A stretch of 64,000 nucleotides of DNA from Candidatus Omnitrophota bacterium (lineage in GTDB: Bacteria > Omnitrophota > Gorgyraeia > Velamenicoccales > JABMQK01). The position numbers and the translations under genes are program-made. Each line of letters begins with the position of its first letter. The first letter of the stretch is position 1. The notes beneath the pieces are model-generated. The model did not search any database. It had not been told where the DNA came from and saw only the letters and a program-made list of their open reading frames with translations. The stretch lies in NCBI GenBank assembly GCA_028711115.1, contig JAQTSV010000001.1, positions 710,032 to 774,031 of the forward strand, given 5' to 3'. This document shows positions 5,269 to 26,365 of the stretch, in pieces.

Positions 5269-5409
5269 AGACAAGTGTTAATCCGGGATTTTCCGGATAT
5301 TCTCATAAATATTTAAGAAGTTTAACTTATGTTTATTTACCTGTGAGCTATACTTTAATACGATAAGTATAAGCGTCATGTGTAAGTAATTACTCATTGG
5401 AGGTAAAAG

Positions 5410-6402: not shown

Positions 6403-6438
6403 ACCAAGTTTAAAAGTCTGCAATTATAGAAAGGCAAC

Positions 6439-7140: not shown

Positions 7141-7181
7141 TTAGTTAGATAATATTTATTCCCAAGCGGATAATAAATATA

Positions 7182-8375: not shown

Positions 8376-8382
8376 ACTAGTT

Positions 8383-9633
8383 ATGTCAGCCAAGACAATT
8401 GCGGAAAAAATACTTTCTCTACACGCAGAGAAGGATTTAAAGGCAGGCGATTTTGCCATCTGCAGGATTGATTTTTGTTTTGGACAGGATGGCACCAGCG
8501 GAATTATTATCGACAGATTCAATCAGTTAGGCATTGATAAAGTTTTTGATAAAGATAAATTCGCCGTTGTCATAGACCATAATTCTCCCTCGCCAAACCA
8601 GGGCGTGGCCGCGGTCCATAAGAAACTCAGGGATTTCACAAAGAAATTAAATTTAAAACTATACGATATCGGTTGCGGCGTATGCCATCAGATTATTCCG
8701 GAGATGGGGCATGTACTTCCGGGTTACCTTGTGCTGGGAGCTGATTCCCATACCTGTACATACGGAGCCCTGGGCGCGTTATCTACCGGAGTCGGTTCAA
8801 CTGATTTAGCCATAAGTTTGGCCTGCGGCAAGAATTGGTTCAGGGTCCCCGAAAGCATTAAGATAATTGTAAAAGGAAAAATTCCCAAGGGAGTTTTTGC
8901 CAAAGATATTATCTTGTATATCATAAAAGATTTAAGAGCTGACGGCGCGACATATAAGTGCGTAGAATTTAGCGGTCCGGTAATTAGCGATTTAAATTTG
9001 GATGGAAGATTCACTATCTGTAATATGGCTGTTGAATTGGGTGCAAAATTCGGCGTTATGGAACCCGATGGAAAAGTCTACAATTTCTTAAAAGATAAGA
9101 CAAAGATTAAGTCCAAACCGCAGTTTTCCGACAAGAATGCAAGATACGCTCTTATAAAAGAATACGATATCTCCAAAATTTCTCCGCAGATTGCCAGGCC
9201 CCATACAGTGGATAATGTCTGTAACATAGAAGAGGTGGCCGGCACAACCATTAACCAGGCTTTTTTAGGCACCTGCACTAATGGCAGGCTGGAAGATTTA
9301 GAGATAGCAGCCAAAATGTTAAAAGGTAAGAGGATAAATCCTGACATTCGTTTTGTTATCGCCCCTGCATCAAAGAGTATTTATTTGCTTGCACTTAAAA
9401 AAGGATGGATTAGAATATTCATTGAAGCAGGCGCAGCCGTAGTGAACCCCGGATGCGGCCCTTGCGTAGGCACGCATCAGGGAATTCCCGCAGATAAAGA
9501 GGTTGTAATATCTACGGCCAACAGAAATTTCAAAGGCAGGATGGGAAATCCCAATGCCTTCATATATTTGGCATCTCCGGCTACAGTTGTGGCTTCGGCA
9601 TTGAAAGGTAAAATTGCTGATCCGAGAACTTAG
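8383..9633 (+). CDS. Aconitase-family dehydratase large subunit (LeuC/HacA type)
   Basis: 416 aa; DHNSP, GDSHT-like GADSHTC, GTCTNGR and CGPCVG cluster-ligand motifs. Confidence 0.88.
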   Translation: MSAKTIAEKILSLHAEKDLKAGDFAICRIDFCFGQDGTSGIIIDRFNQLGIDKVFDKDKFAVVIDHNSPSPNQGVAAVHKKLRDFTKKLNLKLYDIGCGVCHQIIPEMGHVLPGYLVLGADSHTCTYGALGALSTGVGSTDLAISLACGKNWFRVPESIKIIVKGKIPKGVFAKDIILYIIKDLRADGATYKCVEFSGPVISDLNLDGRFTICNMAVELGAKFGVMEPDGKVYNFLKDKTKIKSKPQFSDKNARYALIKEYDISKISPQIARPHTVDNVCNIEEVAGTTINQAFLGTCTNGRLEDLEIAAKMLKGKRINPDIRFVIAPASKSIYLLALKKGWIRIFIEAGAAVVNPGCGPCVGTHQGIPADKEVVISTANRNFKGRMGNPNAFIYLASPATVVASALKGKIADPRT

Positions 9634-9669
9634 CCAACGATCGTAGCCTTATTAAAAAAGGAGTTCAAT

Positions 9670-10716
9670 ATGGAATTAAGAGAATTATTATTACATACTA
9701 TTGAAAAGCAGGCTTCAGACCTGCATCTTACGGAAAATATGCCGCCGTTAATCCGTATAGACGGTAGGATTATTGCCACAAGTTCCCACAAACTTACACG
9801 CGATGATACCAAGAGGCTTATATATTCGGTTTTGAGCAGCGACCAGAAGGAGAAATTTGAGCAGGACTGGGAACTGGATTTATCTATTGCCCTGCCTGGG
9901 CTTGATCGTTTTCGTATGAATGTGCATATCCAGCGTGGTTGTGTGGAAGCTGCATTTCGCAGAATTCCGCTTTTAATTCCTTCATTGGATGAACTGGGCC
10001 TGCCGCGCATAGTATTGGAGCTTGCACGTAAACCCAATGGCTTAGTCTTGGTTACCGGTCCTACAGGCGTGGGTAAGACTACTACCTTAGCTGCGATGGT
10101 TGATTTGATCAATAGTGAAAGAGAAGATATTATTATTTCCATAGAAGATCCCATAGAATTTCTGCACTACAATAAGAAATGCGTAGTCAAGCAACGCGAA
10201 GTTTTTTCAGATACCAAGTCTTTTTCCGACGCATTAAAGCATGCCTTAAGGCAAGACCCCAACGTAATTATGGTGGGAGAGATGCGCGATTTGGAAACTA
10301 TATCTACTACGCTTACCGCAGCCGAGACAGGACATTTGGTTTTGGCAACTCTGCATACCCCGGATGCGCCACAGACCATAGAAAGAATCATAGATGTATT
10401 TCCTCCTAATCAGCAGCATCAGGTGAGATTGCAGCTCGCTGATTGCCTTCAGGGAGTTGTCTCGCAGCTGCTTTTACCCCGCGCAGACAACAAAGGAAGA
10501 GTCTTGGCAACAGAGGTAATGATTGCCACGCCGGCCATAAGAAATCTCATCAGAGAGCAGGAGATAGAACAGATTCCTACTTTGATGCAGACAGGCAGCC
10601 AATTCGGTATGCATACGATGGATAAATCCCTGAAGAAGCTTTATAAAGACGGAATCATCAGCATAGAGACTGCAACTTCAAAGGTCAAAAATCCCGAAGA
10701 ATTTAAATCGCTATGA
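9670..10716 (+). CDS. pilT: Type IV pilus retraction ATPase PilT family
   Basis: 348 aa; ASDLHL N-terminus, Walker A GPTGVGKTTT, Walker B VIMVGEMRD and the GHLVLATLHT His box. Confidence 0.9.
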   Translation: MELRELLLHTIEKQASDLHLTENMPPLIRIDGRIIATSSHKLTRDDTKRLIYSVLSSDQKEKFEQDWELDLSIALPGLDRFRMNVHIQRGCVEAAFRRIPLLIPSLDELGLPRIVLELARKPNGLVLVTGPTGVGKTTTLAAMVDLINSEREDIIISIEDPIEFLHYNKKCVVKQREVFSDTKSFSDALKHALRQDPNVIMVGEMRDLETISTTLTAAETGHLVLATLHTPDAPQTIERIIDVFPPNQQHQVRLQLADCLQGVVSQLLLPRADNKGRVLATEVMIATPAIRNLIREQEIEQIPTLMQTGSQFGMHTMDKSLKKLYKDGIISIETATSKVKNPEEFKSL

Positions 10717-11213
10717 TTTTAAAGGGTTTTTCTTATCTTTTGGGAGACGACGTAAATACCGACCTGATAATTTCCGGCCGGTATAAATTCTCGATTTCGG
10801 ACATAAAAGAATTATCCAAACATATTTTAGAGGATGTTGACCCTCAGTTTTATAGCCGTCTGAAACCAGGCGAATCTATACTGGTGGGAGGAAAAAACTT
10901 CGGCATGGGTTCTTCCCGTGAGCAGGCGCCGCTGGTTATAAAAGAAGCAGGCATTGTTTGCGTAGTGGCAAAGAGTTTCGCCAGGATTTTTTATCGCAAT
11001 GCCATAAATATCGGATTGCCGCTGGTGGAGGCAGATACATCAAATATTAAAGAGAAAGACCAGTTGAATATTGACTTGGAAAACGGAATCTTAAAGAATA
11101 TTACCCGCAATTACCAGGAAAAAATTTTACCTTTGCCGCAAGTAATGGTCAAACTTTTACTGGATGGCGGATTAGTCCAGCATTTTAAGAAATACGGAGA
11201 GATAAAGCTATAG
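10713..11213 (+). CDS. Aconitase-family dehydratase small subunit (LeuD/HacB type)
   Basis: 166 aa; [14 protein letters not shown] and [14 protein letters not shown] motifs. ATGA overlap with the pilT stop. Confidence 0.87.
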
Positions 11214-11216
11214 CCT

Positions 11217-12296
11217 ATGAAATATAAAATTACCTTAATTCCCGGAGACGGTACAGGCCCTGATGTTACTAAGGCAGCGGTGCGTTGCATTGAGGCAACC
11301 GGCGTTAACATAGAATGGGAAGAATTTCTGGCTGGCGAAGGCGCAATCGAAAAATACGGGACACCTTTGCCGCAAGATATAATAGCTTCTGTTAAAAAGA
11401 ATAAGATAGCCTTAAAAGGCCCCATCACGACTCCTATTGCCTCGGGTTTTCGTTCTGTGAATGTGGCTTTGCGCCAGAGTTTGGAATTATTTGCCTGCCT
11501 TCGTCCGGCAAAGTCGATAGAAGGCGTAATCTCACCGTATAAAAATATCGATTTGGTTATCATCCGTGAAAATAGTGAGGATTTATATGCGGGGATTGAA
11601 TTCGAAAAAGGCGCCAAAGATACAGAAAAATTGATATCTTTGATAAATAAATTAAGCGCAAAAAAAGTAAGAGAAGATTCGGGAATTTCCATAAAACCAA
11701 TTTCAGAATTTGCCTCCCGAAGGATTATAGATTTTGCTTTTAAATATGCAGCAGAAAATAACCGTAAGAAAGTTACGGTTGTGCATAAGGCAAACATAAT
11801 GAAATATACCGACGGATTATTCCTAAAAATCGCCAGAGACATCGCCTCAAAAAATAAAAATATCGGTTTTGAAGAGGCGATTGTGGATAATCTATGTATG
11901 CAGTTAGTGCTTCGGCCGCACAATTTTGATGTTTTGGTCCTGCCCAATCTTTACGGAGATATAATCTCGGATTTGTGCGCGGGCCTAATCGGCGGACTGG
12001 GTATTGCACCAGGCGCAAACATCGGTAAAGACTGCGCCTTGTTTGAACCGGTGCATGGCGCAGCACCGAAATACAAAGGCTTGAATAAAGTGAATCCCAC
12101 TGCCACCATACAGAGCGGTGTAATGATGTTACGCTATATAAATGAAGATAAGGCCGCAGATAAATTGGAGTCTGCTTTAAAAGAGGTAATCAAAGAAGGC
12201 AAGTTTGTGACATACGATTTAAAGAAAGACAGAAATGATCCTTCAGCCGTAGGCACGCAGCAAATGGCAGATGCAATTATAAAGAAGATGAAATAG
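11217..12296 (+). CDS. Isocitrate/isopropylmalate dehydrogenase family enzyme (IDH-like substrate loop)
   Basis: 359 aa; [28 protein letters not shown] and NLYGDIISD motifs. Confidence 0.88.
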
Positions 12297-12301
12297 CCAC
12301 C

Positions 12302-13228
12302 ATGAAAATATCCATAATCGGCGCTGGTAATGTTGGCGGTTTGACGGCGATGCGCATATTAGAACAAGGCATCGCCGAAGTTGTTTTGGTAGATGTTGTA
12401 AAAAACCTCTCCAGGGCAAAGGCATCTGATTTGGATGATGCCCGTTCTATTTCGGAACATAATAACGTAATTGAAGGCACAGAGGATTTTTCTCAGATAC
12501 GCGGCTCCGGTATAGTTGTAGTCACTGCAGGCCTGGCCAGAAAACCGGGAATGACCAGAGAAGACCTGCTTAAGAAAAATTACGAAATTGCCCAGTCAGT
12601 CAGCAAAAACATTAAGGAATTAGCTCCGGACTCCATAGTCATCGCCGTAAGCAATCCCGTGGATATTATGACTTATGTTTTATTAAAGGAGACGGGTTTT
12701 GATAAGAGGCGTGTTTTCGGCATGGGCGCAAATCTTGATGCATCGCGTTTTAATAATTTAATCAGCCAGAAATTAAATATCCCCAGCTCAAAAATAAATG
12801 CAATGGTTATAGGCACTCACGGCGAGGCAATGATTCCTCTGCCGAGGTTTAGCAAAATAAAAGGTAAGCCATTAGATAAAATATTAGGTAAAGATGAGGT
12901 CGATACATTGGTAAATTCAACAAAAAACAGAGGCGCTACCATTGTTTCTTTATACGGCTCGGGCAGCGCCTATTTTGCTCCCAGCGCCGCTATATTGGAA
13001 ATTTGCCGGGCAGTAATAAGAAATGAAAAAAGAATTATTCCTGTGTCAGCCTATCTGGACGGTGAATATGGCGTTTCTGATATTTGTATCGGCGTACCAG
13101 CAAGATTAGATAAAAATGGTATAAATCAGATTATAGAACTGGATTTAAATCCGCAGGAAAAGGAATTATTTTTACAGTCAGTTAATTCCGTAAAACAAAG
13201 CATCAATATAATTTATCCGGTTAAATAA
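12302..13228 (+). CDS. mdh: Malate dehydrogenase (LDH-like family)
   Basis: IIGAGNVGG Rossmann motif. GLARKPGMTRED has the Arg typical of MDH rather than LDH. Confidence 0.88.
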   Translation: MKISIIGAGNVGGLTAMRILEQGIAEVVLVDVVKNLSRAKASDLDDARSISEHNNVIEGTEDFSQIRGSGIVVVTAGLARKPGMTREDLLKKNYEIAQSVSKNIKELAPDSIVIAVSNPVDIMTYVLLKETGFDKRRVFGMGANLDASRFNNLISQKLNIPSSKINAMVIGTHGEAMIPLPRFSKIKGKPLDKILGKDEVDTLVNSTKNRGATIVSLYGSGSAYFAPSAAILEICRAVIRNEKRIIPVSAYLDGEYGVSDICIGVPARLDKNGINQIIELDLNPQEKELFLQSVNSVKQSINIIYPVK

Positions 13229-13229
13229 T

Positions 13230-14501
13230 ATGGAAACTTATGATTTAGTTATTATTGGCGGTGGTTGGGCAGGATTTAATGCTGCGCTGGAAGCAAAAAA
13301 ACTGGAAAAAAAAGTTTGCTTAATAGAATGCAGCCAAATCGGCGGCACCTGCCTTAATCAAGGTTGTATACCCACAAAGGTTCTGACAAATTTTGCAAAA
13401 AAGACTTCCGGCGGTTTATCGCAGGGCCTGTCTTTGTTCAAAAAAGAAAAAGAAAACACCGTATCCACGTTAAAAAATGGGATGGAATTTATGCTTAAGT
13501 CCCAGAAGATAGATTTTATCCGGGGGACGGCAAAGATTATTTCCCAGGATAAAGTACTTATTAAAGAAGAAAAAGAAGAAATCGGAGCAAAGTTTATTTT
13601 AATAGCCACAGGTTCAAGACCAAAAGACCTGCCGTTTTTAAAGTTCGACCACAAGCGCATTCTATCCAGCGATGATATTCTGGAATTGGATTCTTTGCCC
13701 GGCAATTTACTGATAGTGGGCGGCGGGGTTATCGGTTGTGAATTTGCCTGCGCCCTGAATAAATTGGGCAGCAAAGTTACCATCGCAGAAATTCTGGACA
13801 GACTGGTATTTATGTTTGACAAAGATATTTCGCAGAAATTAGAGCAGGTTTTCAAAAAACTAGCCATAACAGTAAACACCGGATATGATATTAAAGATAA
13901 AGATTTAAGTTCATATGATAAGATACTGCTTTGCGTGGGCAGAGAGGTAAATTTCAATGAGCTATTTGAATCAAAAGCTGGCGTAGAGACTGATAAAAAC
14001 GGTTTTATCAGAGTCGACGATAAATTAAAGACGTCAGTTTCCCGTATCTACGCAGCAGGCGATTGCACCGGCGGACTTCAGCTTGCCCATGTTGCCAGCT
14101 ATGAAGGAAGAATGGCGGTAAACAATATGTTTGGCAAGCCCAGAAGCGTTGATTATTCTGCGGTGCCGAGTTCTGTGTTTACCAATCCTGAATTGGCGCA
14201 GGTTGGTATGAACCAAGAAGAAGCCAGAAACAAAGTCAAAAATACAAAGATTATTAAGAAATTCTTTTTATCCGTCGGTATGGCGCACATAATTAAGGAG
14301 ACAGACGGTTTCCTTAAGCTGATTATAGACAGCGATAACAATACCATATTAGGAGCCGGTATTATAGGGCCGCAGGCCACTGAGCTGATCAATACTTTAA
14401 CTGTGGCTATAAAATATAAACTTACCTTAGATGATCTCAAGGATTTAATTTTCGCCCACCCCAGTATCTCTGAAATTTTTACAGAGACAATCCAATCTTA
14501 A
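13230..14501 (+). CDS. Dihydrolipoyl dehydrogenase-like pyridine nucleotide-disulfide oxidoreductase
   Basis: 423 aa; GGGWAG FAD motif, redox-active GGTCLNQGCIPTK and a C-terminal HPSISE. Confidence 0.82.
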   Translation: METYDLVIIGGGWAGFNAALEAKKLEKKVCLIECSQIGGTCLNQGCIPTKVLTNFAKKTSGGLSQGLSLFKKEKENTVSTLKNGMEFMLKSQKIDFIRGTAKIISQDKVLIKEEKEEIGAKFILIATGSRPKDLPFLKFDHKRILSSDDILELDSLPGNLLIVGGGVIGCEFACALNKLGSKVTIAEILDRLVFMFDKDISQKLEQVFKKLAITVNTGYDIKDKDLSSYDKILLCVGREVNFNELFESKAGVETDKNGFIRVDDKLKTSVSRIYAAGDCTGGLQLAHVASYEGRMAVNNMFGKPRSVDYSAVPSSVFTNPELAQVGMNQEEARNKVKNTKIIKKFFLSVGMAHIIKETDGFLKLIIDSDNNTILGAGIIGPQATELINTLTVAIKYKLTLDDLKDLIFAHPSISEIFTETIQS

Positions 14502-15164
14502 ATGTATTTATCCGTTATTGATTTAGGCAGGGTTTCCTTTAAAGAGGCATTTTGGAGACAAATCCAGCTTCACAGGGAAATTTTAGAGGACGATGCCTGC
14601 CGCAGCCACACAATTATTTTGTGTGAACATCCTCATACAATCACCACAGGCAAGAAAGTCAATGCAGAGAATCTCCTGGACTACAAATTTATTAAAGATA
14701 ATAATGTTGATTTTGTGGTGGGAATAAACAGAGGTGGCGATATAACCTATCACGGCCCGGGGCAACTCATGGGTTATTTGATATTCGATTTAAGAAAGCT
14801 CAACAGAAATCTGGGCGGCTTTTTAAATAAAATAGAAGATGTGATTATTAAAACCATTACTGCATTTAATATATCCACATACACCAAGAGCGGTTTTCGC
14901 GGCATCTGGGTAAATGAACAAAAAATAGCTTCCATAGGTATCGGCGTGGATAGATGGGTTAGCCTCCACGGATTTGGTTTAAACGTCAGTACTGATTTAA
15001 GTTTCTTTGATATAATCAAGCCTTGCGGAATGGATATAAAGATGACATCTATGAAAGAACAATTAGCCAGACAAGTCGACATAAATCTAGTTAAGGAAGA
15101 ATTAGTAAGGCAGGTATGCGATATTTTTAAATTAGAATCTTCAAGAGAGCATGCGTTTGTATGA
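14502..15164 (+). CDS. lipB: Octanoyltransferase (lipoyl(octanoyl) transferase)
   Basis: 220 aa; RGGDITYHGPGQL and the PCGM catalytic Cys region. Confidence 0.88.
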   Translation: MYLSVIDLGRVSFKEAFWRQIQLHREILEDDACRSHTIILCEHPHTITTGKKVNAENLLDYKFIKDNNVDFVVGINRGGDITYHGPGQLMGYLIFDLRKLNRNLGGFLNKIEDVIIKTITAFNISTYTKSGFRGIWVNEQKIASIGIGVDRWVSLHGFGLNVSTDLSFFDIIKPCGMDIKMTSMKEQLARQVDINLVKEELVRQVCDIFKLESSREHAFV

Positions 15165-15190
15165 TATCAGTATTTAGAAAGGGGTAAAAT

Positions 15191-15421
15191 ATGGCCAGTG
15201 TAGTTTTACCGGAATTAGGAGAAGGTATTGAAAAAGCAACAGTTTCATATTGGCATTTTGAAGTAGGCAAGGAAGTAAAAGAAGGAGACGAATTAGTGGA
15301 AATGGCCACTGATAAAGCAGTTTTCAATGTTCCGTCCCCAATTACAGGCATATTACAGGAAAAATTAGTAGAAGAGGGTAAAGAAGTAAAAGTAGGCGAA
15401 GCCCTGGCAGTTATTGAATAA
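15191..15421 (+). CDS. Stand-alone E2-type lipoyl-attachment domain protein (76 aa)
   Basis: PELGEGI and the MATDKA lipoyl-lysine motif. No catalytic E2 domain is attached. Confidence 0.8.
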   Translation: MASVVLPELGEGIEKATVSYWHFEVGKEVKEGDELVEMATDKAVFNVPSPITGILQEKLVEEGKEVKVGEALAVIE

Positions 15422-15571: not shown

Positions 15572-15600
15572 TTGACAATAGATACCTTTAGATATATATT
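15572..15600 (+). promoter_or_regulatory. Sigma70-like promoter TTGACA-17-TATATT, followed by three ATTGT repeats (15608, 15615, 15625)
   Basis: TTGACA at 15572-15577, a 17-nt spacer and TATATT at 15595-15600, about 55 nt upstream of ATG 15657. Confidence 0.55.
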
Positions 15601-15656: not shown

Positions 15657-15896
15657 ATGGCCAAGAAAACCAAAGAAATTTTGAATGCAAAAGACGTAGC
15701 TGATTACCTGAATGTGCATCTATTTACAGTACATAAATATGCACGTGAAGGTAGGATTCCTGCATTCAAAATCGGGGCTGATTGGCGTTTCCACCGTAAA
15801 TCCATAGAAAAATGGATTAAGGAGAAAGAGCAGAGCAATGTGGAAACAGGCAATTCAGCCAAGCAGAAAAAAGAAGCCGGACTCTTTAAAAGTTAA
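15657..15896 (+). CDS. Excisionase-family (MerR-superfamily) helix-turn-helix DNA-binding protein
   Basis: LNAKDVADYLNVHLFTVHKYAREGRIPAFKIGADWRF resembles the excisionase-type HTH pattern. Confidence 0.7.
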   Translation: MAKKTKEILNAKDVADYLNVHLFTVHKYAREGRIPAFKIGADWRFHRKSIEKWIKEKEQSNVETGNSAKQKKEAGLFKS

Positions 15897-15921
15897 TCTT
15901 AGCTAGAGGCACTTACAATAT

Positions 15922-17172
15922 ATGAAACCAGCAAAAAAGAGAATCGTTATAACAGGCATAGGTATAATTACTTCCAACGGCATAGGTAAAGATGAATTCT
16001 GGAAGAATTTAGAGAAAGGCGTTTCCGGAATTAAACAAGTCAGCCTATTTGATACAGGCAATTTAAAAACACACACAACCGGCGAAATAAAGGATTTCGA
16101 TGCCGCAAAATACCTGGGGGAAAAAGGTTTACGTTTGTTGGATCGCACTACCAAAATTGTCAATGTGGCAGCAAAATTTGCTTTAGATGATGCAAATTTA
16201 AAAATAGATGAGTCCAACACAAATGAGGTAGGCGTGGTTTTAGGCACGACATTAGGAAGCGTCTGGAGTATAAGCGAATTTGATAAAACTTCTTTAAGGG
16301 AAGGCCCGCGCGGCGTAAATCCGGCGCTGTTTCCCAACACAGTAATCAATTCTCCGGCCAGCCAGATTTCAATCCGTTTTGTCATAAAGGGATTTAATAC
16401 TACCATCGCCACAGGTTTTACGGCAAGCCTGGATGCTTTACGCTATGCCTGTGATTTTATTCAGCTAAACCGCGCAAAGGCAGTAGTGGTTGGCGGCGTG
16501 GAAGAATTATGCATCCAGACATATCTGGGTTTTTATAAATTAAAATTTTTAGCCGGTTCCAAAGATTCGGATTTGGAGTTGTCTTGTCCTTTTGATAAAC
16601 GAAGAAATGGTATTATTTTTGGCGAAGGCGCTTCTATGGTTGTGATTGAGGATTTGGAGAGCGCCCAAGCCAGAGGCGCAAAAATATATGCAGAGATTTT
16701 GAGTTTCGGGTCTTATTTTGACCCGTACAGGATTAATAAATATAATCGCCTCGGCCCAGGCATACGCGCAGCCATGCGTTCAGCTTTGGAAAATGCACAG
16801 TTAACGCCACGGAATATTGATTATATCTGTGCAAATGCAAATTCCACAAAAGAGGCAGATTTGATTGAGGCCGAGGCGATTAAGGATGTTTTTGGCGACC
16901 AGGCAAAAAAGGTGCCTGTAAGCTCAATAAAGTCAATGGTTGGCGAATCATTCAGCGCCTGTGGCGCGTTGTCTTTAGCTGCTTCTCTGGGGGCGATAGA
17001 AAATAAATTTATTCCTCCTACGATAAATTATAAAGAGCCTGATGCAGAGTGCGACTTGGATATCGTGGCGAATAAATCCAGAAAGAAAGAATTAAAGAGC
17101 GTATTGATTAATACATTCGGCCCAAGCGGGACGAATACGTGTGCAATAATAGGAAAGTTCAGTAAAAATTGA
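15922..17172 (+). CDS. Beta-ketoacyl synthase-like protein lacking the Cys-His-His triad (chain-length-factor-like partner)
   Basis: Thiolase-fold KS of 416 aa. By hand alignment to FabF motifs, IATGFTAS replaces IATACTSG, CANANST replaces NAHGTST, and KSMVGES replaces KSMTGH. Confidence 0.85.
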   Translation: MKPAKKRIVITGIGIITSNGIGKDEFWKNLEKGVSGIKQVSLFDTGNLKTHTTGEIKDFDAAKYLGEKGLRLLDRTTKIVNVAAKFALDDANLKIDESNTNEVGVVLGTTLGSVWSISEFDKTSLREGPRGVNPALFPNTVINSPASQISIRFVIKGFNTTIATGFTASLDALRYACDFIQLNRAKAVVVGGVEELCIQTYLGFYKLKFLAGSKDSDLELSCPFDKRRNGIIFGEGASMVVIEDLESAQARGAKIYAEILSFGSYFDPYRINKYNRLGPGIRAAMRSALENAQLTPRNIDYICANANSTKEADLIEAEAIKDVFGDQAKKVPVSSIKSMVGESFSACGALSLAASLGAIENKFIPPTINYKEPDAECDLDIVANKSRKKELKSVLINTFGPSGTNTCAIIGKFSKN

Positions 17173-17184
17173 GCTTTTAATTTT

Positions 17185-17925
17185 ATGTTAAAAAATAAAA
17201 TCGCAATAGTCACTGGCGGAACACGCGGAATAGGCAGGGCAATTGTATTGGCTTTGGCAAAACAAGGTGTAAAGGTGGCATTTAATTATTTAAAGAGCGA
17301 TAAGGAGGCAAAAGAAGTTCTTAAAGAAGTCAGTGATTTGGGTTCCGAGGCATTGAGTTTTAAATTTGACGTGCGGGATTTTAATTTAGCCAAAGAGTTC
17401 GTCGAGAAAGTAAAAGAATATTTCGGAGGATTAGATATATTGGTTAATAATGCAGGTATAATCAAAGATAAGGCGCTTATGTTAATGGAAGAAAATGACT
17501 GGCGCGAGGTTATTGATACCGACCTTACGGGTTATTTTAATTTAACCCGGGCCTGTATCGTGGGATTATTGAAACAGAAATCAGGAAACATTGTAAATAT
17601 TACCTCAGATAGCGGTGTTAGTGGTACTTCCAGGCAGACAAATTATTCTGCTGCCAAGGCCGGGATAATCGGTTTTACCAAATCTCTGGCAAAAGAAGTG
17701 GCAGGTTACAATATCAGGGTAAATGCCGTGGCAGCAGGTTTTATTGATACACAGATGACACAGAATCTAAAACCAGATTATAAAGAAAAATTAAAATCCT
17801 TGATTCCTAAAGGTGAATTTGGCAAACCGCAGGATGTGGCTGGTGCGGTTTTATTTTTGCTTAGCGATGCAGCAGATTACATTACAGGCCAGGTATTACG
17901 TGTAGATGGCGGAATGGTAATGTAG
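17185..17925 (+). CDS. 3-oxoacyl-ACP reductase (SDR, FabG-like)
   Basis: TGGTRGIGRA, NNAG and YSAAKAG motifs. Confidence 0.9.
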   Translation: MLKNKIAIVTGGTRGIGRAIVLALAKQGVKVAFNYLKSDKEAKEVLKEVSDLGSEALSFKFDVRDFNLAKEFVEKVKEYFGGLDILVNNAGIIKDKALMLMEENDWREVIDTDLTGYFNLTRACIVGLLKQKSGNIVNITSDSGVSGTSRQTNYSAAKAGIIGFTKSLAKEVAGYNIRVNAVAAGFIDTQMTQNLKPDYKEKLKSLIPKGEFGKPQDVAGAVLFLLSDAADYITGQVLRVDGGMVM

Positions 17926-17937
17926 GAGGAGGAGACA

Positions 17938-18180
17938 ATGCCGAATATTGAACAGGAAATTCGTGAGATAATTGCAGAGATTATCGAGAAAAAGCCCGAA
18001 ACGATAACTGGCGACGCTAATTTGTTTGAAGATTTGGGTGCGGATTCAATGATGGCGCTGGAGATTCTGGCTGCGCTTGAGAAAAAATATAAAGTCGTTA
18101 TTCCCGAAGACAAACTTACGCAATTGACGTCATTACGTAAAATTATGGAGCTGGTGGAAACCTTAAAGAAAAAAAGGTAG
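17938..18180 (+). CDS. Acyl carrier protein (specialised, basic C-terminus)
   Basis: 80 aa; phosphopantetheine site LGADSM and a KKKR C-terminal end. Confidence 0.85.
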   Translation: MPNIEQEIREIIAEIIEKKPETITGDANLFEDLGADSMMALEILAALEKKYKVVIPEDKLTQLTSLRKIMELVETLKKKR

Positions 18181-18190
18181 GTGCCAATAT

Positions 18191-18652
18191 ATGGAAAATC
18201 AAATCTTGGAGATTGAAGATTTAAAAAGGATACTTCCTCAGAGGTATCCTTTTTTAATGATTGACAGAGTGATTTACTCGGGCCAGGACAAAGTTGTGGC
18301 CTTAAAGAACGTGAGTGTTAACGAAGGATTTTTCGAAGGGCACTTTCCCGACGAGAAAGTTATGCCGGGCGTATTGATTATTGAAGCAATAGCCCAAACA
18401 GGGATTGTTTTGGTCCATAACGTTAAGTCTAAGGAAAAGAAGATAGACAAAGATAAAAAGCGTATTTATTTTTTAGGCGGAATTAATAAAGTAAGATTTT
18501 TCCAGCCGGTCAAACCCGGCGATCAGCTAAAGATTGAGGTAAAACCCGTAAAGCTCATCTCAAATATTGGTATGATTTGCGGAGAGGTTTTTGTCAAAGA
18601 CAAGAAAGTCGCGCAAGCGGAATTGTCGTTTAGCATGAAAGAAATCGATTAA
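18191..18652 (+). CDS. 3-hydroxyacyl-ACP dehydratase (FabZ-like hotdog)
   Basis: RYPFLMIDRV, HFPDEKVMPGVL and IEAIAQ motifs. Confidence 0.9.
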   Translation: MENQILEIEDLKRILPQRYPFLMIDRVIYSGQDKVVALKNVSVNEGFFEGHFPDEKVMPGVLIIEAIAQTGIVLVHNVKSKEKKIDKDKKRIYFLGGINKVRFFQPVKPGDQLKIEVKPVKLISNIGMICGEVFVKDKKVAQAELSFSMKEID

Positions 18653-18679
18653 AAAGTTAATGGAAAGTCCGATTTAAAC

Positions 18680-18740
18680 GTAACCAAAAGTAACTTATGG
18701 TAACAAAAAATAGTTTTGCGAATTAGTAACCCATAGTAAT
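18680..18740. repeat. Helically phased GTAAC/GTAAT pentamer array in the fabZ-like/KS intergenic gap
   Basis: GTAAC at 18680, 18690, 18700 and 18726, and GTAAT at 18736 (indexed by hand). The spacing is 10 bp within each subgroup. Confidence 0.5.
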
Positions 18741-18750
18741 TTTTAAAACA

Positions 18751-19965
18751 ATGAAACGAGTTGTAATTACCGGCTTAGGCGTTGTGAGTTCAATCGGAAT
18801 AGGCAAAGACGAGTTCTGGTCGAATTTGATTAAAGGCAAATCCGGAATTTCCAAAATAGAGTCTTTTGATACCACTGGTTATCCTACGCAATACGGCGGG
18901 GAGATAAAGAATTTCAAATCAGAAGAATTTATCAATAGGCGCAAAGTTAAGTCGTTAGGACGAGCTTCTCAGCTCAGCATAGCCGCTGCTAAATTAGCCC
19001 TCCAGGATTCCCACACAGAGATAAAAGAAATTAAGAATAGAAATTTCGGTGTTTGTGTAGGTACAACTATGGGCGAGACTCAATTGATGGAGGAGATGGA
19101 TTCGACCTGGATTAAAAGCGGAGAAGACAAGGTAAAATTTTCTTTGGTATATTCTTTTCCCACCAATATTATATCCGCAAATTTAGCTTTAGAGCTAAAA
19201 GTCAATGGCGATAACTTTATGATGCCTACTGCCTGTGCTGCAGGTAATTATTGCATTGGTTATGGAGCAGATATAATAAGGAGCAGCAAAGAAACAAATA
19301 TTGTGTTAGCCGGAGGGACAGATGCTTTTTCTAAGGTTGCTTATACTGGTTTTAACCGCCTCTATGCTATGGCTCCGGAAAAATGCCAGCCATTTGATAA
19401 AAACAGAAAAGGAATGTTGCTTGGCGAAGGCGCGGCAATTTTGGTTTTAGAATCATTAGATAGCGCGTTACAAAGAAAAGCCAATATCTATGCAGAAATT
19501 TTAGGTTATGGTTTAAGTTGCGATGCTCATCATATGACTCAACCCTTAGAAGAGGGCATTGCAAAATGTATGTTAAAGGCAATGAATGAGGCAGGCATTG
19601 GTGCAGGTGATGTAGATTATATCAGCGCCCACGGAACAGGAACTCCGCAAAACGATAAAATAGAGGTTGCTGCTCTAAAGAAAGTCTTTGGTAAAAGATA
19701 TAAAAAGATTCCGGTATCATCCATTAAATCAATGCTCGGCCATACAATGGGTGCAGCTGCGGCAATGGAGGCAATTGCTTGTTGTTTGGTTTTAAAAGAA
19801 GGCATTCTTCCACCGACTATAAATTATGAAATCCCCGATCCGGAGTGTGATATTGATTGTGTGCCGAATAAGGCAAGGAAACAGAAGGTTAATATTGTGC
19901 TTAACAACTCTTATGCATTTGGTGGGAATAATGCGTGTTTGGTACTGAGGAAATACAATGTTTAA
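18751..19965 (+). CDS. Beta-ketoacyl-ACP synthase (FabF-like, catalytically complete)
   Basis: PTACAAG (Cys), SAHGTGT (His) and KSMLGHTMGAA (His) are all present. Confidence 0.92.
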   Translation: MKRVVITGLGVVSSIGIGKDEFWSNLIKGKSGISKIESFDTTGYPTQYGGEIKNFKSEEFINRRKVKSLGRASQLSIAAAKLALQDSHTEIKEIKNRNFGVCVGTTMGETQLMEEMDSTWIKSGEDKVKFSLVYSFPTNIISANLALELKVNGDNFMMPTACAAGNYCIGYGADIIRSSKETNIVLAGGTDAFSKVAYTGFNRLYAMAPEKCQPFDKNRKGMLLGEGAAILVLESLDSALQRKANIYAEILGYGLSCDAHHMTQPLEEGIAKCMLKAMNEAGIGAGDVDYISAHGTGTPQNDKIEVAALKKVFGKRYKKIPVSSIKSMLGHTMGAAAAMEAIACCLVLKEGILPPTINYEIPDPECDIDCVPNKARKQKVNIVLNNSYAFGGNNACLVLRKYNV

Positions 19966-21604
19966 TAATATTCATTTAAATCCATTTGCCATTTCTAATT
20001 TATTGATAGTTTTGACTTGTTTTCCACTGGCTATAGTAATATTCATTTACGGAAAAACAAAGTTAAGCAAAATATATTGCCTGCATGTTATTTCTCTTGG
20101 AGTATGGGGTTTCGGTGCTTTTTTTGCTTCCTCAATTATAGTTTCGAATATTTCTTATATTTGGTGGTTAATTGCTTATTCAGGCGTTATTATCATTCCT
20201 GTCTTTTTTCTGCATGTAGTTTGTATTTTATCTAATAGATTAAAAAATCCGCTTTTATTATTCAGCTATATTCAAGCAATAGTCTTCCTGGTATTAAATT
20301 TTATGGGTTTAATTTTTAAAGAAAATAAATTTATGTTTAATTCTTTTTATTATGCTCAAGGAAACTTTTTGCATTATGTTTCATTCTTTATTTGGAGCAT
20401 CATCGTTATTACTGAATATTATTTATTAATAAGACTAAATTTCAGAAATAAAAATAGATCTTTTATGATTTTATTTTTAATAGCTACCATAGGCTATGGC
20501 GGCGGATTAATGAATTTCTTTCCAGCTTTCGGTTTCAATATTTACCCTTGGGGCAATTTCACGGTTCCCATATATCTTATTGTAATAACTTGGGCAATAT
20601 TTAAGTATCAAGTTTTTGAAGTCAATGTAGCATTTCAAAAAAGTTTTATTTATTCAATTCTAATTGCTTTAATCACTGCTACTTATTTTATTTTCGTCTT
20701 TTTAGCCGAGAAACTTTTCCAAGGCATGGTTGGGTATACTTCGTTGTTTATCAGCATTATTTATGCTTTTGTAATTGCTTTATTTTTTAATCCTGTTAAG
20801 AACAAGATTCAGTATTTTGCGGATAAGATTTTCTTAGGTAAAACTCCTATTCAAATTGCCAAAGAAAATGAACTCTTGCGTCAGGAGCTTTTGCGTGCAG
20901 AAAAGTTAAAGACAATTGCAACCTTTGCTTCCGGAATGGCACACGAAATTAAAAATCCTTTAACAGCCATAAAGACATTTAGCGAATATTTACCACAAAA
21001 AATCGGCGATAAAGAATTTATGCAAAAGTTTTCCCATATTGTCAGTTCTGAGGTAGAGAAAATAGATGATTTAGTCCACCAATTACTTGATTTTTCCAAG
21101 CCAGCACCTTTACAATTAAAGGAAGCAGATATTCATAGGCTTATTGATGATACGCTTGAACTATTAAGCAGCCAGTTTATTAAATATAAAATTAATGTTA
21201 CAAAAGATTATTGTGATTACAAGATGATTGCAGTGATAGATACACAGAAAATGAAGCAGGTGTTCTTAAATCTCTTTCTCAACGCCATCGAAGCAATGCC
21301 TGCCGGCGGCAATCTTACGATTACCATCAGGGTTAACAGTGAGCAATTAACAGACAACAGTAAGCAGGTGACTGCACAGACTCGCAGAAATTTTATTGAA
21401 ATTTCTGTGAGCGACACTGGCTGCGGAATTTCAGACAAAGATATGCCGCACATCTTTGAGCCATTCCATACAACTAAGGAAAAAGGAAGTGGATTGGGTT
21501 TGTCTATAGTTTATAATATTATCAAAGAACATAAAGGAAGCATTAAAGTAAAAAGCAAGCTTAAAGAAGGCACAAAGTTTATTATTGAGTTACCAAAAGC
21601 GTAA
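19958..21604 (+). CDS. Sensor histidine kinase with a polytopic 7TM-type N-terminal domain
   Basis: About 290 aa of TM helices, then H-box SGMAHEIKNPL and an HATPase region (DTGCGI, GSGLGLS). The start overlaps the KS stop (ATGTTTAA). Confidence 0.88.
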   Translation: MFNNIHLNPFAISNLLIVLTCFPLAIVIFIYGKTKLSKIYCLHVISLGVWGFGAFFASSIIVSNISYIWWLIAYSGVIIIPVFFLHVVCILSNRLKNPLLLFSYIQAIVFLVLNFMGLIFKENKFMFNSFYYAQGNFLHYVSFFIWSIIVITEYYLLIRLNFRNKNRSFMILFLIATIGYGGGLMNFFPAFGFNIYPWGNFTVPIYLIVITWAIFKYQVFEVNVAFQKSFIYSILIALITATYFIFVFLAEKLFQGMVGYTSLFISIIYAFVIALFFNPVKNKIQYFADKIFLGKTPIQIAKENELLRQELLRAEKLKTIATFASGMAHEIKNPLTAIKTFSEYLPQKIGDKEFMQKFSHIVSSEVEKIDDLVHQLLDFSKPAPLQLKEADIHRLIDDTLELLSSQFIKYKINVTKDYCDYKMIAVIDTQKMKQVFLNLFLNAIEAMPAGGNLTITIRVNSEQLTDNSKQVTAQTRRNFIEISVSDTGCGISDKDMPHIFEPFHTTKEKGSGLGLSIVYNIIKEHKGSIKVKSKLKEGTKFIIELPKA

Positions 21605-21606
21605 AA

Positions 21607-22724
<1,118 letters not shown>

Positions 22725-22728
<4 letters not shown>

Positions 22729-24179
22729 AAGAAAAATACGATACGGTGATTATTGGAGCAGGGATTGGGGGATTGATTTGCGGTTGCTATTTATCCAAAG
22801 CAGGACTGGATGTTTTAATAATAGAGCAACAAAACAAACCTGGTGGATACTGCGTTTCATTTAAAAAAGGGGAGTTCAATTTCGATGCTGGCGGTCATTA
22901 TTTAGGAGGAGTACGAAGAGGAATTTTAGGAAAGATTTTGGAAGAATTAGATTTAAAGAGTCATATAAAATATAAACAATTCGATCCTTCAGAGAAAATC
23001 ATCTTGCCGAATAATATGCTTTATCTAAGAGCAGATCCACGCGATACAATAAGAGAATTTAGGAAGAACTTTTCAAAAGAAAAAATAAATATTGATAATT
23101 TCTTTAAATTTATCATGCAGAAAAATTTTCTAGATATTTACACAAAAGTAAAAAAAACTACCTTTAAAGAAGTAGTGGATAGTTTTTTTGAAAGTAATCA
23201 ATTAAAAGCAACTTTAGGAGCTTTTTTATTCAATAGTGGGACACCACCAGGCAAAGCAGCTGCGTCGCCGGCCATTGTTTTATTTCGCCAGTATTTATTA
23301 GATCCAGGCTATTATCCTTCCGGTGGCTTTCAAAAATTTCCTGATGTGTTAGCTGAGAATTTCGAAAATAATGGTGGGAAAATTATATTATCAAATAAAG
23401 TGAATAAGATTATAACCGATTCTAATAAAATTAAAGGAGTGATTATTGATGGCAATAGAGCAATTGGCGCCAATAATGTCATATCTAATGCTGATGCAAC
23501 TGAAACTTTTAAAAAAATGTTAGATATACCAAATAGAGAGGCAACTATTGTAGATAAAATGATTCCCTCTCCTTCCATGTTTATATTATATTTAGGACTT
23601 AATATAAATTTAAGAGAAAAATTGAGAGAGAGTTGTAATATTTATTATTTTTCTACCTATAATATAGACGAAATTTTCTCAAATCTAGATAAAATTTTAA
23701 TGATTGATAAAATACCAAGTATATTTTGTGTTCCTATTTCTTTGCATAATTACTCTAATGAATTTAAAAAAGGTTCGATGGTAATCTTGACTATTGCACC
23801 TTACAAATCTTGCAAATTTTGGGATAAAAATAAAGATAGTATCAGCGAGAGAATAGTAAGTCTTGCTAATAAATTAATACCTGGTTTATTGAGTTCTATA
23901 GAGTTGCAAATTTGTGCTACGCCTATCACTCTGTCAAAATATACCTTAAATAGAGAAGGAGCTTTTGCAGGATGGTTACCTATTTTATCACAAACAAAAG
24001 CTGATCTCTTACCGCAAAAAACTTCTATCGACAGACTTTATATTGTTGGACAATGGTGTACTTCCAGTTACCTTCCTTCTGGTGGAATAGCTAATGTAGC
24101 CCTTACAGGTAGAAGGGTTGCTAGATGGATTATAGAAGATTCAAACAGAATATGGAAATATCCTGAACTTTATTTATAA
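22725..24179 (+). CDS. FAD-dependent oxidoreductase of the phytoene desaturase / RetSat (CrtI-like) family
   Basis: 484 aa; the N-terminal VIIGAGIGGL dinucleotide motif with a GGY..S continuation and a C-terminal GQW...GGI region are typical of the family. Confidence 0.78.
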
Positions 24180-24187
24180 TAAATAAC

Positions 24188-26365
24188 ATGAATCTATATT
24201 CAATACCTTTATTTATTATCTCATTGGTTTTTATAGTGTTGGGAATCTTTGTTTATTTAAAAAATAATAAAAGGATTCTTAATAAACTATTTTTATATCT
24301 AAGTATCGCTGGTGGTATTTGGTTATTCTCTTACTCTATGGCATATAATAGTAGTCTTAATGAATTAGCACAATTATGGTTAAAAATTGGTTATAGCGGA
24401 GTGGTTTTTATTGCAATAACAGGATTTAATTACACTGTGGAATTTTTAAAAATAAAGAGAACCAAAAAACTTGTTTATATATGTTATTTTATAGGTTGGA
24501 TCTTTGTGGTTTTAATATGGATAAGCAGATGTTTAATACGCGGTATTCATAATTTCTTTTGGGGATATTATCCACAAGCAGGTAACATCCATCCAATTTT
24601 TTTAGTATTTTTTATAGGTATAGTGAGTTTTTCTCTCATGCTTTTATGCTATTCTTTGTGGTTTAAAAGTAAAAAATCTACTCCATTTGAAAGAGCTCAA
24701 ATTAAATATGTATTTCTAGCTTTTTTATTTTATAGTTTTGCCTCTGTCGATTTTCTCCCTAATTATGGAATAGAAATTTATCCTTTTGGTTATATCCCTA
24801 CATTAGTATTCATTCTGATTATAGCTTATACTATTATTAAATATAGGTTAATGGACATCACCATTGCAATTACCCGTACGGGAATTTTTATTGCTGTCTA
24901 TTCATTAGTTTTAGGTACTCCATTTATTATTGCCTATTCTTTACGACCTTATTTATTAGGTTTCTTTGGGGATAAATGGTGGTTCGTACCTATGGGATTG
25001 CTTACTGTTTTGGCAACCGTAGGTCCTTTTATATATATTTATATCAATACAAAAGCAGAGGATAGGTTACTTCGTGAGCAACGTCAGTATCAGAATACTC
25101 TAAGGCAGGCATCCAGTGGTATGATAAGGGTGAGAGAATTAAATAGATTGCTTAATTTAATAGTTCATGTTGTGACAAAAACTGTTAAACTTGAATTTGC
25201 AGCTATCTTTCTTCTAAATTCAGAGAACAATCAATACGTAATGGTAGCCAAGAGAGATTCTTCAGTCTTGTCTAAAAGTTTTAGTTTAGATATTAATTCT
25301 TCGCTTATAAAACAGCTGCATTCAAAAAGAGAGCCTCTGGTTTATGAGGAAATACAACTACAATCACAAGATAGTTCCTATGATGTAAAGTTAGCCTCTT
25401 TAGAAAAACAACTGAAAGAACTACAAGCTGCTGTGGTGGTTCCCAGTTTTGTAGGTAATAAATTATTAGGCCTTATTGTCTTGGGCAAGAAACTTTCCGG
25501 TAAGATTTATTCTCAAGATGACTTAAATGTATTTTCGGTTTTGGCTAATCAGGCAGCTTTAGCTATAGAAAATGCCCAGTTTTACGAGGATGTAAAAAAG
25601 ACACAGGAACAGTTATTCCAGGCAGAAAAAATGGCTACTGTCGGAACAATGGCTGACGGCCTTTCGCATCAGATAAATAATCGTTTTCAGGCTTTATCTT
25701 TGATTGCCGGAGATTCTCTGGATATTCTGCAGTCTCTGGATATGTCTAAAAGTTCTTCAGAATTTAAAGATGTCTTGGAGCAGTTAAAATATGCATTGCA
25801 AAGAATACAGACCAATGTTATGCAGGGCGGCGATATTGTCAAAGGGCTTTTGAAATATTCCCGTCCCGGGCCAAAAGGATTTGAGCCGGTAGATTTCAGT
25901 AAAATTGTCGAAGGTGCTTTGGAAATGGTGCAATATAAAGTGCGGCTGCAGGATTTAGATATAGAAAGGCAAATCCCCGGCGATCTGCCTCAGATAAAAT
26001 GCAACCTGACCCAGATGGAAGAGGTGTTTTTTAATCTCATCGATAATGCTTACGACGCCATTAAAGAGAGAAAAGAAGCCTTAAAAGACTCAAGCTTCAG
26101 AGGCAAGATTGCAATATCTGCAATACAAAAAGATGAAAGCGTCTGGATTGTTTTTCAGGATAACGGCATAGGTGTCAAAGACAGGGACAAGGCCAGTTTA
26201 TTTACTCCATTTTTTACTACCAAGGCCACCAGCAGAAAAGGCACAGGTTTGGGCCTATACGTTATACAAAAAATAATAGGTTTTCATAACGGCACAATTA
26301 GTGTAAACTCTACATATAACGTAGGCACGAAATTTGAAATACTATTACCGCTTGCTAATAAGTAA
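24188..26365 (+). CDS. Sensor histidine kinase: 7TM-type N-domain, GAF, HisKA and HATPase
   Basis: The N-terminal TM region is paralogous to 19958..21604. It also has a GAF-like segment (LLGLIVLGKK...ALAIENAQFYE), H-box DGLSHQINN, and DNGIGV/GTGLGL. Confidence 0.88.
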   Translation: MNLYSIPLFIISLVFIVLGIFVYLKNNKRILNKLFLYLSIAGGIWLFSYSMAYNSSLNELAQLWLKIGYSGVVFIAITGFNYTVEFLKIKRTKKLVYICYFIGWIFVVLIWISRCLIRGIHNFFWGYYPQAGNIHPIFLVFFIGIVSFSLMLLCYSLWFKSKKSTPFERAQIKYVFLAFLFYSFASVDFLPNYGIEIYPFGYIPTLVFILIIAYTIIKYRLMDITIAITRTGIFIAVYSLVLGTPFIIAYSLRPYLLGFFGDKWWFVPMGLLTVLATVGPFIYIYINTKAEDRLLREQRQYQNTLRQASSGMIRVRELNRLLNLIVHVVTKTVKLEFAAIFLLNSENNQYVMVAKRDSSVLSKSFSLDINSSLIKQLHSKREPLVYEEIQLQSQDSSYDVKLASLEKQLKELQAAVVVPSFVGNKLLGLIVLGKKLSGKIYSQDDLNVFSVLANQAALAIENAQFYEDVKKTQEQLFQAEKMATVGTMADGLSHQINNRFQALSLIAGDSLDILQSLDMSKSSSEFKDVLEQLKYALQRIQTNVMQGGDIVKGLLKYSRPGPKGFEPVDFSKIVEGALEMVQYKVRLQDLDIERQIPGDLPQIKCNLTQMEEVFFNLIDNAYDAIKERKEALKDSSFRGKIAISAIQKDESVWIVFQDNGIGVKDRDKASLFTPFFTTKATSRKGTGLGLYVIQKIIGFHNGTISVNSTYNVGTKFEILLPLANK

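Follow-up and report, generated by a model that had tools for sequence, protein, structure and literature searches.

What remains for a fatty-acid condensing enzyme to do once it has lost its entire catalytic triad? The question is raised by a locus of a Candidatus Omnitrophota bacterium, lying within the 64,000-nucleotide stretch analysed here (the window; contig JAQTSV010000001.1 of assembly GCA_028711115.1, positions 710,032 to 774,031), whose plus strand encodes a 416-amino-acid (aa) FabF paralog at 15922..17172 and, four genes downstream at 18751..19965, a second ketosynthase (KS) of 404 aa. An earlier reading of the sequence alone had claimed that the first protein lacks the Cys, His and His of the triad while the second keeps them, and that the first is a non-condensing partner of the second, resembling a chain-length factor (CLF) but belonging to a class distinct from the Gln-bearing classical CLFs. 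We refer to the two as the dead KS and the active KS. The dead KS is a catalytically dead FabF paralog that is closest to amxFabFmut of anammox bacteria, and by analogy with that protein it is very probably a non-catalytic, obligate structural partner of the active KS.

Direct translation of the dead KS gives the motifs IATGFTAS, CANANST and KSMVGES, for which the FabF equivalents are TACxxx, NAHGTxT and KSMxGH. The protein matches both ketoacyl-synthase Pfam domains (N and C) over their full length, and the register of its motifs was established in three ways: by pairwise HMMER alignment to solved FabFs, by MAFFT alignment with FabF and the anammox pair, and by the Pfam profile. All three agree in placing the motifs in register with the FabF catalytic residues, so that the catalytic Cys is replaced by Phe166 (codon 16417-16419), the first catalytic His by Asn305 (16834-16836) and the second by Glu342 (16945-16947). 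The catalytic Lys is kept as Lys337 (16930-16932), and the gating Phe has become Pro401 (17122-17124). The profile alignment places no Cys, His and His elsewhere in register, and the sole histidine of the protein is His51, where most homologs have Lys; a triad hidden elsewhere in the dead KS is thus excluded. The active KS, for its part, retains TACAAG, AHGTGT and LGHTMG, with Cys162, His294, Lys326, His331 and the gating Phe390 all intact. Every point of the sequence-only observation on the two triads holds.

Neither the gene model nor the assembly accounts for the missing residues. The boundaries of the open reading frame (ORF) at 15922-17172 are correct, with the N-terminus of the dead KS aligning with residue 2 of Protein Data Bank (PDB) chain 9S5H_C, and the Cys is absent both from the 120 closest database homologs (Phe in 116, Tyr in 4, Cys in 0) and from all 80 related loci described below, so that a sequencing or strain artefact is excluded. 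An exact match to the dead KS in the public database, from a Candidatus Omnitrophota metagenome-assembled genome (MAG), is labelled merely "beta-ketoacyl-ACP synthase family protein", and the protein falls short of the curated thresholds for FabF (386.6 against 493.75 for TIGR03150; 373.6 against 387 for NF005589).

The relatives that place the dead KS come from anammox bacteria. In May 2026 the Barends group described a pair of FabF homologs encoded in "Cluster I", the putative ladderane cluster of these organisms (bioRxiv 10.64898/2026.05.19.726425). The active amxFabF2 and the triad-less amxFabFmut co-purify. Neither is active without the other, whereas the pair decarboxylates malonyl-ACP and produces acetoacetyl-ACP. 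In the crystal the two make up a heterodimer whose only tunnel to reach an active site is that of amxFabF2, and the authors ascribe a disfavouring of homodimers to electrostatic asymmetry of the helix-loop-helix interfaces. Their heterodimer was presented as the first CLF in a fatty-acid pathway, and the cluster was called unique to ladderane producers. The reference genes are KustE3606/KustE3605 and Broful02170/02171, the structures are PDB 9S5H and 9S5I, and the heterodimer goes by the name amxFabFhet.

Both proteins of the window find their best PDB match in this complex. For the dead KS it is 9S5H_C (E 1.9e-121), at 409 bits against 287 for the best FabF, and for the active KS it is 9S5H_B (E 1.8e-150), whose 504 bits stand well clear of the ishigamide KS Iga11 (351) and of FabF (333). 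The fact that 9S5H_C and 9S5H_B are two chains of one heteromeric entry supports the pairing of the dead KS with the active KS. Identity to the Brocadia proteins is 49.6% for the dead KS with amxFabFmut and 55.6% for the active KS with amxFabF2. Neighbour-joining trees with 200 bootstraps, built from the Omnitrophota pairs, the Brocadia pair, canonical FabFs and representatives of 50%-identity clusters, unite the Omnitrophota active KS with amxFabF2 in a clade in 198 of the 200 replicates, and a split that contains all Omnitrophota dead KS together with amxFabFmut, and no triad-bearing sequence, appears in 199 of them. Exact-set bootstrap support for the branching order within the dead-KS clade is low.

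A further line of evidence comes from fused proteins. In roughly 45 of the 150 top family representatives an active KS half and, after it, a dead KS half are joined in one polypeptide; these fusions (P0123, P0125, P0127, P0130, P0131, P0137 and about 40 other representatives) are some 800-830 aa long, with Cys, His, Lys, His and Phe present in the N-terminal half, and a C-terminal half that is triad-less and mostly keeps the FPNTV motif discussed below. The active half of one of them, P0137, falls inside the amxFabF2/Omnitrophota clade. As read from their sequences, such fusions fit a heterodimer in the Omnitrophota pair.

The segment through which a dead subunit might act on its partner is the helix-loop-helix of residues 113-142 (16258..16347, plus strand), whose counterpart lines the acyl tunnel of the active subunit in the anammox heterodimer. 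It closes with the motif F137-P-N-T140-V141 (16330-16344, plus strand). Phe137, Thr140 and Val141 correspond to Phe135, Thr138 and Val139 of B. fulgida amxFabFmut, which line the amxFabF2 tunnel; mutation of Phe135 or Val139 alters chain-length preference in crosslinking assays (bioRxiv 10.64898/2026.05.19.726425). Among the 80 Omnitrophota dead KS, Phe137 and Thr140 are conserved in 80 each and Val141 in 78, and the helix-loop-helix, rich in invariant columns, is the most conserved part of the protein.

An AlphaFold2 monomer model of the dead KS (predicted template modelling score, pTM, 0.87) has the FabF fold, with TM scores of 0.89-0.90 to 4ls5 in Foldseek, and its only long low-confidence stretch is residues 113-142, where the predicted local distance difference test score (pLDDT) is about 40. 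In the crystals of the Barends group the same helix-loop-helix is disordered where amxFabFmut pairs with itself and becomes ordered only with amxFabF2 as the partner. A low pLDDT at so conserved a segment would fit partner-dependent ordering, although a monomer model can only suggest this.

To see how widely the dead KS occurs, one genome per species was scanned, which gave at least 561 matching stretches, and the best 80 loci were examined. Almost all of these are labelled Omnitrophota, or "uncultured Planctomycetia/Planctomycetales" in one automated MAG series, and they include two MAGs labelled Thermodesulfovibrionales. Ca. Velamenicoccus archaeovorus, an enriched organism with a complete genome, carries the cluster at locus L008. 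None of the 80 loci lacks a dead KS, and the residue that stands in for the Cys is Phe in 75 of them and otherwise Tyr (3 loci), Leu (1) or Met (1). The position of the second His always holds Glu or Asp and the Lys is always retained, while the position of the first His is variable (Asn, Ser, Thr, Ala, Gly, Cys or Asp). The literature on the dead KS or on fatty-acid synthesis in Omnitrophota yielded no paper describing the dead KS; the only related item was a report of antiSMASH 'ladderane' clusters in MAGs of this phylum, which it did not analyse further (PMC9902471).

The dead KS is under purifying selection. Its reading frame is preserved throughout the 80 species (54-88% identity), and about 65 alignment columns do not vary. 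Since synonymous divergence (dS) between the window and its closest relative is saturated (above 2) and dN/dS ratios are unreliable, only the nonsynonymous divergence (dN) was compared; it reaches 0.143 in the active KS and 0.133 in FabG but only 0.095 in the dead KS, so constraint on the dead KS is no weaker than on the neighbouring enzymes. These observations contradict the idea that it is a decaying duplicate, a pseudo-enzyme relic that has no function. The loss of all three catalytic residues at once could be taken that way; nevertheless, with a preserved frame, a dN below that of its neighbours and a confidently predicted fold, a relic is hardly credible.

Homology, synteny and the conserved tunnel residues together lead us to expect that the Omnitrophota pair behaves like the anammox heterodimer. 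The two proteins would assemble 1:1 into a heterodimer whose one functional site, Cys162/His294/His331, belongs to the active subunit. This site would decarboxylate malonyl-ACP and condense the product with the growing acyl chain, itself carried on the acyl carrier protein (ACP) that the cluster encodes. With Phe166 in place of the Cys the dead subunit cannot be acylated, and with Asn305 and Glu342 at the two His positions it cannot decarboxylate. The helix-loop-helix of the dead subunit would cross the dimer interface, making Phe137, Thr140 and Val141 part of the wall of the active subunit's tunnel, and these tunnel residues would set the chain lengths accepted; the dead subunit would probably also supply part of the ACP docking surface. 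Each beta-keto product would then be processed by the FabG and FabZ of the cluster, and a CrtI-like oxidoreductase and a thioester reductase would probably carry out desaturation and reductive release of the product.

Several observations weigh against an obligate partnership of this kind, or at least complicate it. In vitro, the anammox heterodimer gave only decarboxylation and acetoacetyl-ACP, with no sustained elongation (bioRxiv 10.64898/2026.05.19.726425), and the true reaction cycle of the KS/dead-KS family is still unsettled. A count of net charge failed to reproduce the published electrostatic asymmetry: for the helix-loop-helix (110-140) and the contact helix (196-206) it gives 0 and +2 in the dead KS and -3 and +2 in the active KS. 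The same proxy does not reproduce the asymmetry for the Brocadia control either, so it is uninformative, and as invalid on that control it was discarded. In addition, the S. brodae amxFabFmut can crystallise as a homodimer, per the same preprint. Finally, in 40 of the 60 loci with enough flanking sequence to be informative, the active KS is found on the same strand no more than 4.4 kb away, and the other 20 carry dead KS-FabG-FabZ alone, neither an active KS nor an ACP being present within 5-10 kb; adjacency of the pair is therefore not universal. In these 20 (L013, L014, L016, L018, L024, L026 and 14 more), the three genes sit in housekeeping surroundings, among riboflavin biosynthesis genes, nusB and the NAD-dependent DNA ligase gene ligA. 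Either their genomes encode the partner elsewhere or the dead KS works without one.

The last two points also favour a dead KS that is independent of the neighbouring active KS, as a homodimer or in a complex with FabG and FabZ that might bind or sequester acyl-ACP or serve as a scaffold. To them can be added that the dead subunit of the Brocadia heterodimer retains a tunnel of its own, with a polyethylene glycol molecule inside (bioRxiv 10.64898/2026.05.19.726425). However, the homodimer crystal is the one in which the helix-loop-helix is disordered, isolated amxFabFmut has no detectable activity, and the strongest conservation in the Omnitrophota dead KS falls on this very segment, which fits a partner-dependent interface. 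A partner encoded elsewhere may also account for the 20 loci, and we regard independence of the active KS as unlikely. We give still less credence to a dead KS that is an enzyme of another chemistry, such as an acyltransferase, a decarboxylase or a chain-coupling enzyme working through Lys337, Glu342 or conserved cysteines. In its favour, neither Lys337 nor the acidic residue at 342 (Glu/Asp) is ever exchanged, and Cys197, Cys222 and Cys377 hardly vary; there is a weak, below-cut-off NCBIfam likeness to the cispentacin KS-like acyltransferase subunit AmcF; and Rattray et al. once proposed that Kuste3606 joins two preformed chains, a proposal made in 2009. But the active-site position holds no nucleophile, being filled by a bulky Phe in 75 of the 80 species and by Tyr, Leu or Met in the rest, and the small and varied residues found at position 305 across species argue against a catalytic role there. 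The AmcF match is far below the FabF matches as well as its own cut-off, and the study that found amxFabFmut inactive in isolation explicitly rejected the coupling proposal (bioRxiv 10.64898/2026.05.19.726425). The structural partnership with the active KS accordingly remains our preferred account of the dead KS, and the partner reading made from the sequence alone is supported to the extent that the nearest relative pairs with its active KS by experiment, while the pairing in Omnitrophota is deduced from that relative.

The pair sits in a tightly packed set of genes on one strand (15657-26365, plus strand): HTH_17, dead KS, FabG, ACP, FabZ, active KS, kinase, reductase, CrtI-like oxidoreductase and kinase. 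A 235-bp AT-rich gap before the first gene holds the best sigma-70-type match of the region (15572..15600, plus strand, 11 of 12 positions), a promoter-like site and a possible operon start. Promoter-consensus sites are no more numerous here than expected from shuffled sequence, and the site is a consensus match only. The first gene (15657..15896) encodes a small HTH_17 DNA-binding protein of the excisionase/MerR-like kind (PF12728, E 5.6e-15), a candidate regulator of the operon, and a homolog lies directly 5' of the dead KS in 34 of the 40 loci that hold an active KS.

Between the two KS genes lie FabG, a 3-oxoacyl-ACP reductase (17185..17925; TIGR01830 302 bits, cut-off 297.75; Pfam adh_short_C2 E 3e-67), the ACP (17938..18180; PF00550 E 2e-16), whose phosphopantetheine Ser37 stands in a DSM motif (codon 18046-18048), and a FabZ-type 3-hydroxyacyl-ACP dehydratase (18191..18652; NF000582 151.6 bits, cut-off 113). 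These small partners also point to anammox bacteria. The three best PDB matches of the ACP are the anammox amxACPs 7qv0_D, 7auf_A and 9s5i_E (54-58 bits, against 45 for the E. coli ACP), and the five best of FabZ are anammox amxFabZ (7qv0_A, 8ay*), by a small margin of 117.6 against 107.5 bits.

Downstream, the end of the active KS is overlapped by 8 nt by the start of a seven-transmembrane sensor histidine kinase (19958..21604; HisKA_7TM, HisKA, HATPase_c), and homologous kinases recur in related loci. It is followed by a stand-alone thioester reductase of the NAD_binding_4/fatty-acyl reductase type (21607..22728; PF07993 E 6e-55; TIGR01746 157 bits, below cut-off), which is a candidate for releasing the ACP-bound product reductively, as an aldehyde or an alcohol, and which is present in 13 of the 40 related loci with an active KS. 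Next come a CrtI/phytoene-desaturase-like FAD oxidoreductase (22725..24179; PF01593, crtI family), homologous to the 'PDH' of Cluster I and found in 21 of these 40 loci, and a second seven-transmembrane sensor histidine kinase, this one with GAF (24188..26365; HisKA_7TM, GAF, HATPase_c), found in 25 of them. GC content across 19958-26365, which spans the kinases, the thioester reductase and the CrtI-like gene, is 0.29-0.33, against about 0.40 around it. In the closest relative, L001, whose dead KS is 85% identical, a third KS of 430 aa with an intact triad (31% identical to the active KS) stands in place of the reductase and CrtI-like genes. Given the drop in GC and this replacement, the 3' part of the cluster looks like an exchangeable module.

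Other accessory genes vary between species (L050 11257-12378 and 14589-15176, L070 11239-12342, L061 11966-13641, L039 10967-11839); they include a 370-aa Shikimate_DH/semialdehyde-DH-like NAD-binding protein in the interval between dead KS and FabG, an ICMT/PEMT-like membrane methyltransferase, S-adenosylmethionine (SAM) methyltransferases and a nitroreductase. Immediately 5' of the window's cluster, genes for malate dehydrogenase, a dihydrolipoamide-dehydrogenase-like protein, a lipoate-protein ligase and a 76-aa lipoyl carrier occupy 12302-15421. This malate dehydrogenase/lipoylation synteny recurs in at least 12 Omnitrophota loci, and Brocadia Cluster I is likewise followed by a dihydrolipoamide-dehydrogenase-like gene, 32% identical (L082, 14405-15838). 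Farther out in the window, genes for the large (8383-9633) and small (10713-11213) subunits of an aconitase-family dehydratase flank a PilT/T2SSE-type ATPase gene (9670-10716), and an isocitrate/isopropylmalate dehydrogenase gene comes after the small-subunit gene. A 2524-aa ORF at 30040-37614, with SpvB, TcdB-middle, FG-GAP, RHS-repeat and laminin-G matches, resembles a Tc-toxin/RHS-type protein, and 3' of it are small ORFs with no family match.

Comparison with Brocadia Cluster I shows how much of this arrangement the two phyla have in common. The Brocadia locus runs ACP, FabZ, amxFabF2, amxFabFmut, CrtI-like oxidoreductase and B12 radical-SAM enzyme, and five of its six genes have homologs at 15922-24179 of the window. 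Besides the KS pair, these are the ACP (46.7% identity), FabZ (44.4%) and the CrtI-like oxidoreductase (31.3% over 492 aa, E 6e-75, with the Brocadia gene that adjoins amxFabFmut). The B12 radical-SAM enzyme is the sixth: tblastn found no match to it in the 64-kb window, whose sole radical-SAM ORF (56948-57910) has no B12 domain and is 35 kb distant, and among the 80 Omnitrophota loci it found weak matches (about 20-23% identity) in six, none of them adjoining the KS pair. A ladderane is thus an unlikely product of the window's cluster, because the candidate cyclising enzyme is missing while FabG and an enzyme for reductive release are added. Omnitrophota are not known as ladderane makers.

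The dead-KS/active-KS pair is not confined to ladderane producers. We consider it possible, if doubtful, that the pair with its ACP, FabZ and CrtI-like companions is an older lipid-synthesis module common to Omnitrophota and anammox Planctomycetota, vertically inherited, phylum-wide and surrounded by housekeeping genes in the former, where it may be the main or only fatty-acid condensing system. The housekeeping setting and the conserved malate dehydrogenase/lipoylation synteny raise the possibility that the cluster serves Omnitrophota as their principal fatty-acid system and is not a specialised one. Were this true, the primary lipid synthesis of the ultra-small Omnitrophota would be under chain-length-factor-type control, and ladderane-specific chemistry would be carried by the radical-SAM enzymes and not by the KS pair. 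The Omnitrophota pairs, with ACP, FabZ and desaturase-like companions and without the B12 radical-SAM enzyme, form a natural comparison set, as features common to both phyla cannot be what makes ladderanes. The locus also draws attention to a so far unstudied pathway of lipid synthesis in a phylum for which we know of no isolates, and, given the bare public annotation, metabolic reconstructions that count the dead KS as a working FabF would err.

The claim that the dead KS represents a class distinct from the Gln-type CLFs is borne out. Classical type II polyketide synthase (PKS) CLFs typically carry Gln at the Cys position. Membership of the dead KS in this group (KS-beta) was considered and rejected, the 60 best PDB matches being FabFs with no CLF chain, 1TQY_B included, among them; even a Gln-bearing relative from the dead-KS family matches this actinorhodin CLF at just 149 bits, against 337 for 9S5H_C. 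The class is therefore distinct, but it is not new: the mutated sites of Kuste3606 (Val/Asn/Lys/Glu) were tabulated in 2009 by Rattray et al. (PMC2649909), the protein type was called "non-canonical FabF" in 2016 (PMC4790861), and the recent characterisation followed. What is new is a member in a different phylum, with Phe at the Cys position, another gene order and a cluster without the radical-SAM enzyme.

Set beside other known systems, the dead KS shares fold and length with canonical FabF (KAS II), at 38% identity to B. subtilis FabF (4LS5), and differs from it in the absence of the triad. A likeness to the cispentacin proteins AmcF, AmcB and AmcE was rejected, all three scoring far below their cut-offs and below the scores for FabF, ACP and FabZ. 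The actinorhodin CLF, Iga11/Iga12 of ishigamide and ApeO/ApeC of aryl polyenes offer a parallel, in that a KS and an inactive homolog of it make up a heterodimer whose tunnel the inactive subunit shapes, as we infer here; Iga11, from a highly reducing type II PKS, is the second-closest solved relative of the active KS. Unlike the classical CLFs, the dead KS is much nearer in sequence to FabF than to any solved CLF, has no Gln at the Cys position and has lost both His, and on the last two grounds its loss of activity looks like an event independent of theirs, from a FabF-like ancestor.

Anammox bacteria have a second pair to which the dead KS could be compared, that of Kuste2805, a 'non-canonical FabB' paired with the FabF Kuste2804 and the radical-SAM enzyme Kuste2803 (PMC2649909, PMC4790861). 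Like the dead KS, Kuste2805 adjoins an active KS and has Phe at the Cys position, with Asn at the equivalents of 298 and 300 (F/N/N/./K/E). This type was rejected, since its representative in L083 is only 38% identical to the dead KS, and the partner there 44% identical to the active KS, against the 49.6% and 55.6% of the Kuste3606/3605 type, to which the dead KS therefore belongs. The L083 locus itself (5078-11496) is Kuste2805-like, with a B12 radical-SAM gene, an active KS, a dead KS and an Old-Yellow-Enzyme/pyridine-nucleotide-disulphide oxidoreductase fusion.

The closest parallel is thus amxFabFmut with amxFabF2. The dead KS shares with amxFabFmut the FabF fold, the lost triad, the exchange of the two His for exactly the same Asn and Glu, the retained Lys and an identical Phe-Pro-Asn-Thr-Val tunnel motif, and in both clusters an active partner of the amxFabF2 clade is encoded nearby. 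It differs in having Phe at the Cys position, where the anammox proteins have Val or Thr, and Pro at the gate, where they have Arg. The gene order also differs, being dead KS-FabG-ACP-FabZ-active KS in the window and ACP-FabZ-active KS-dead KS in anammox bacteria, and only the window's cluster includes FabG, a thioester reductase and two sensor kinases.

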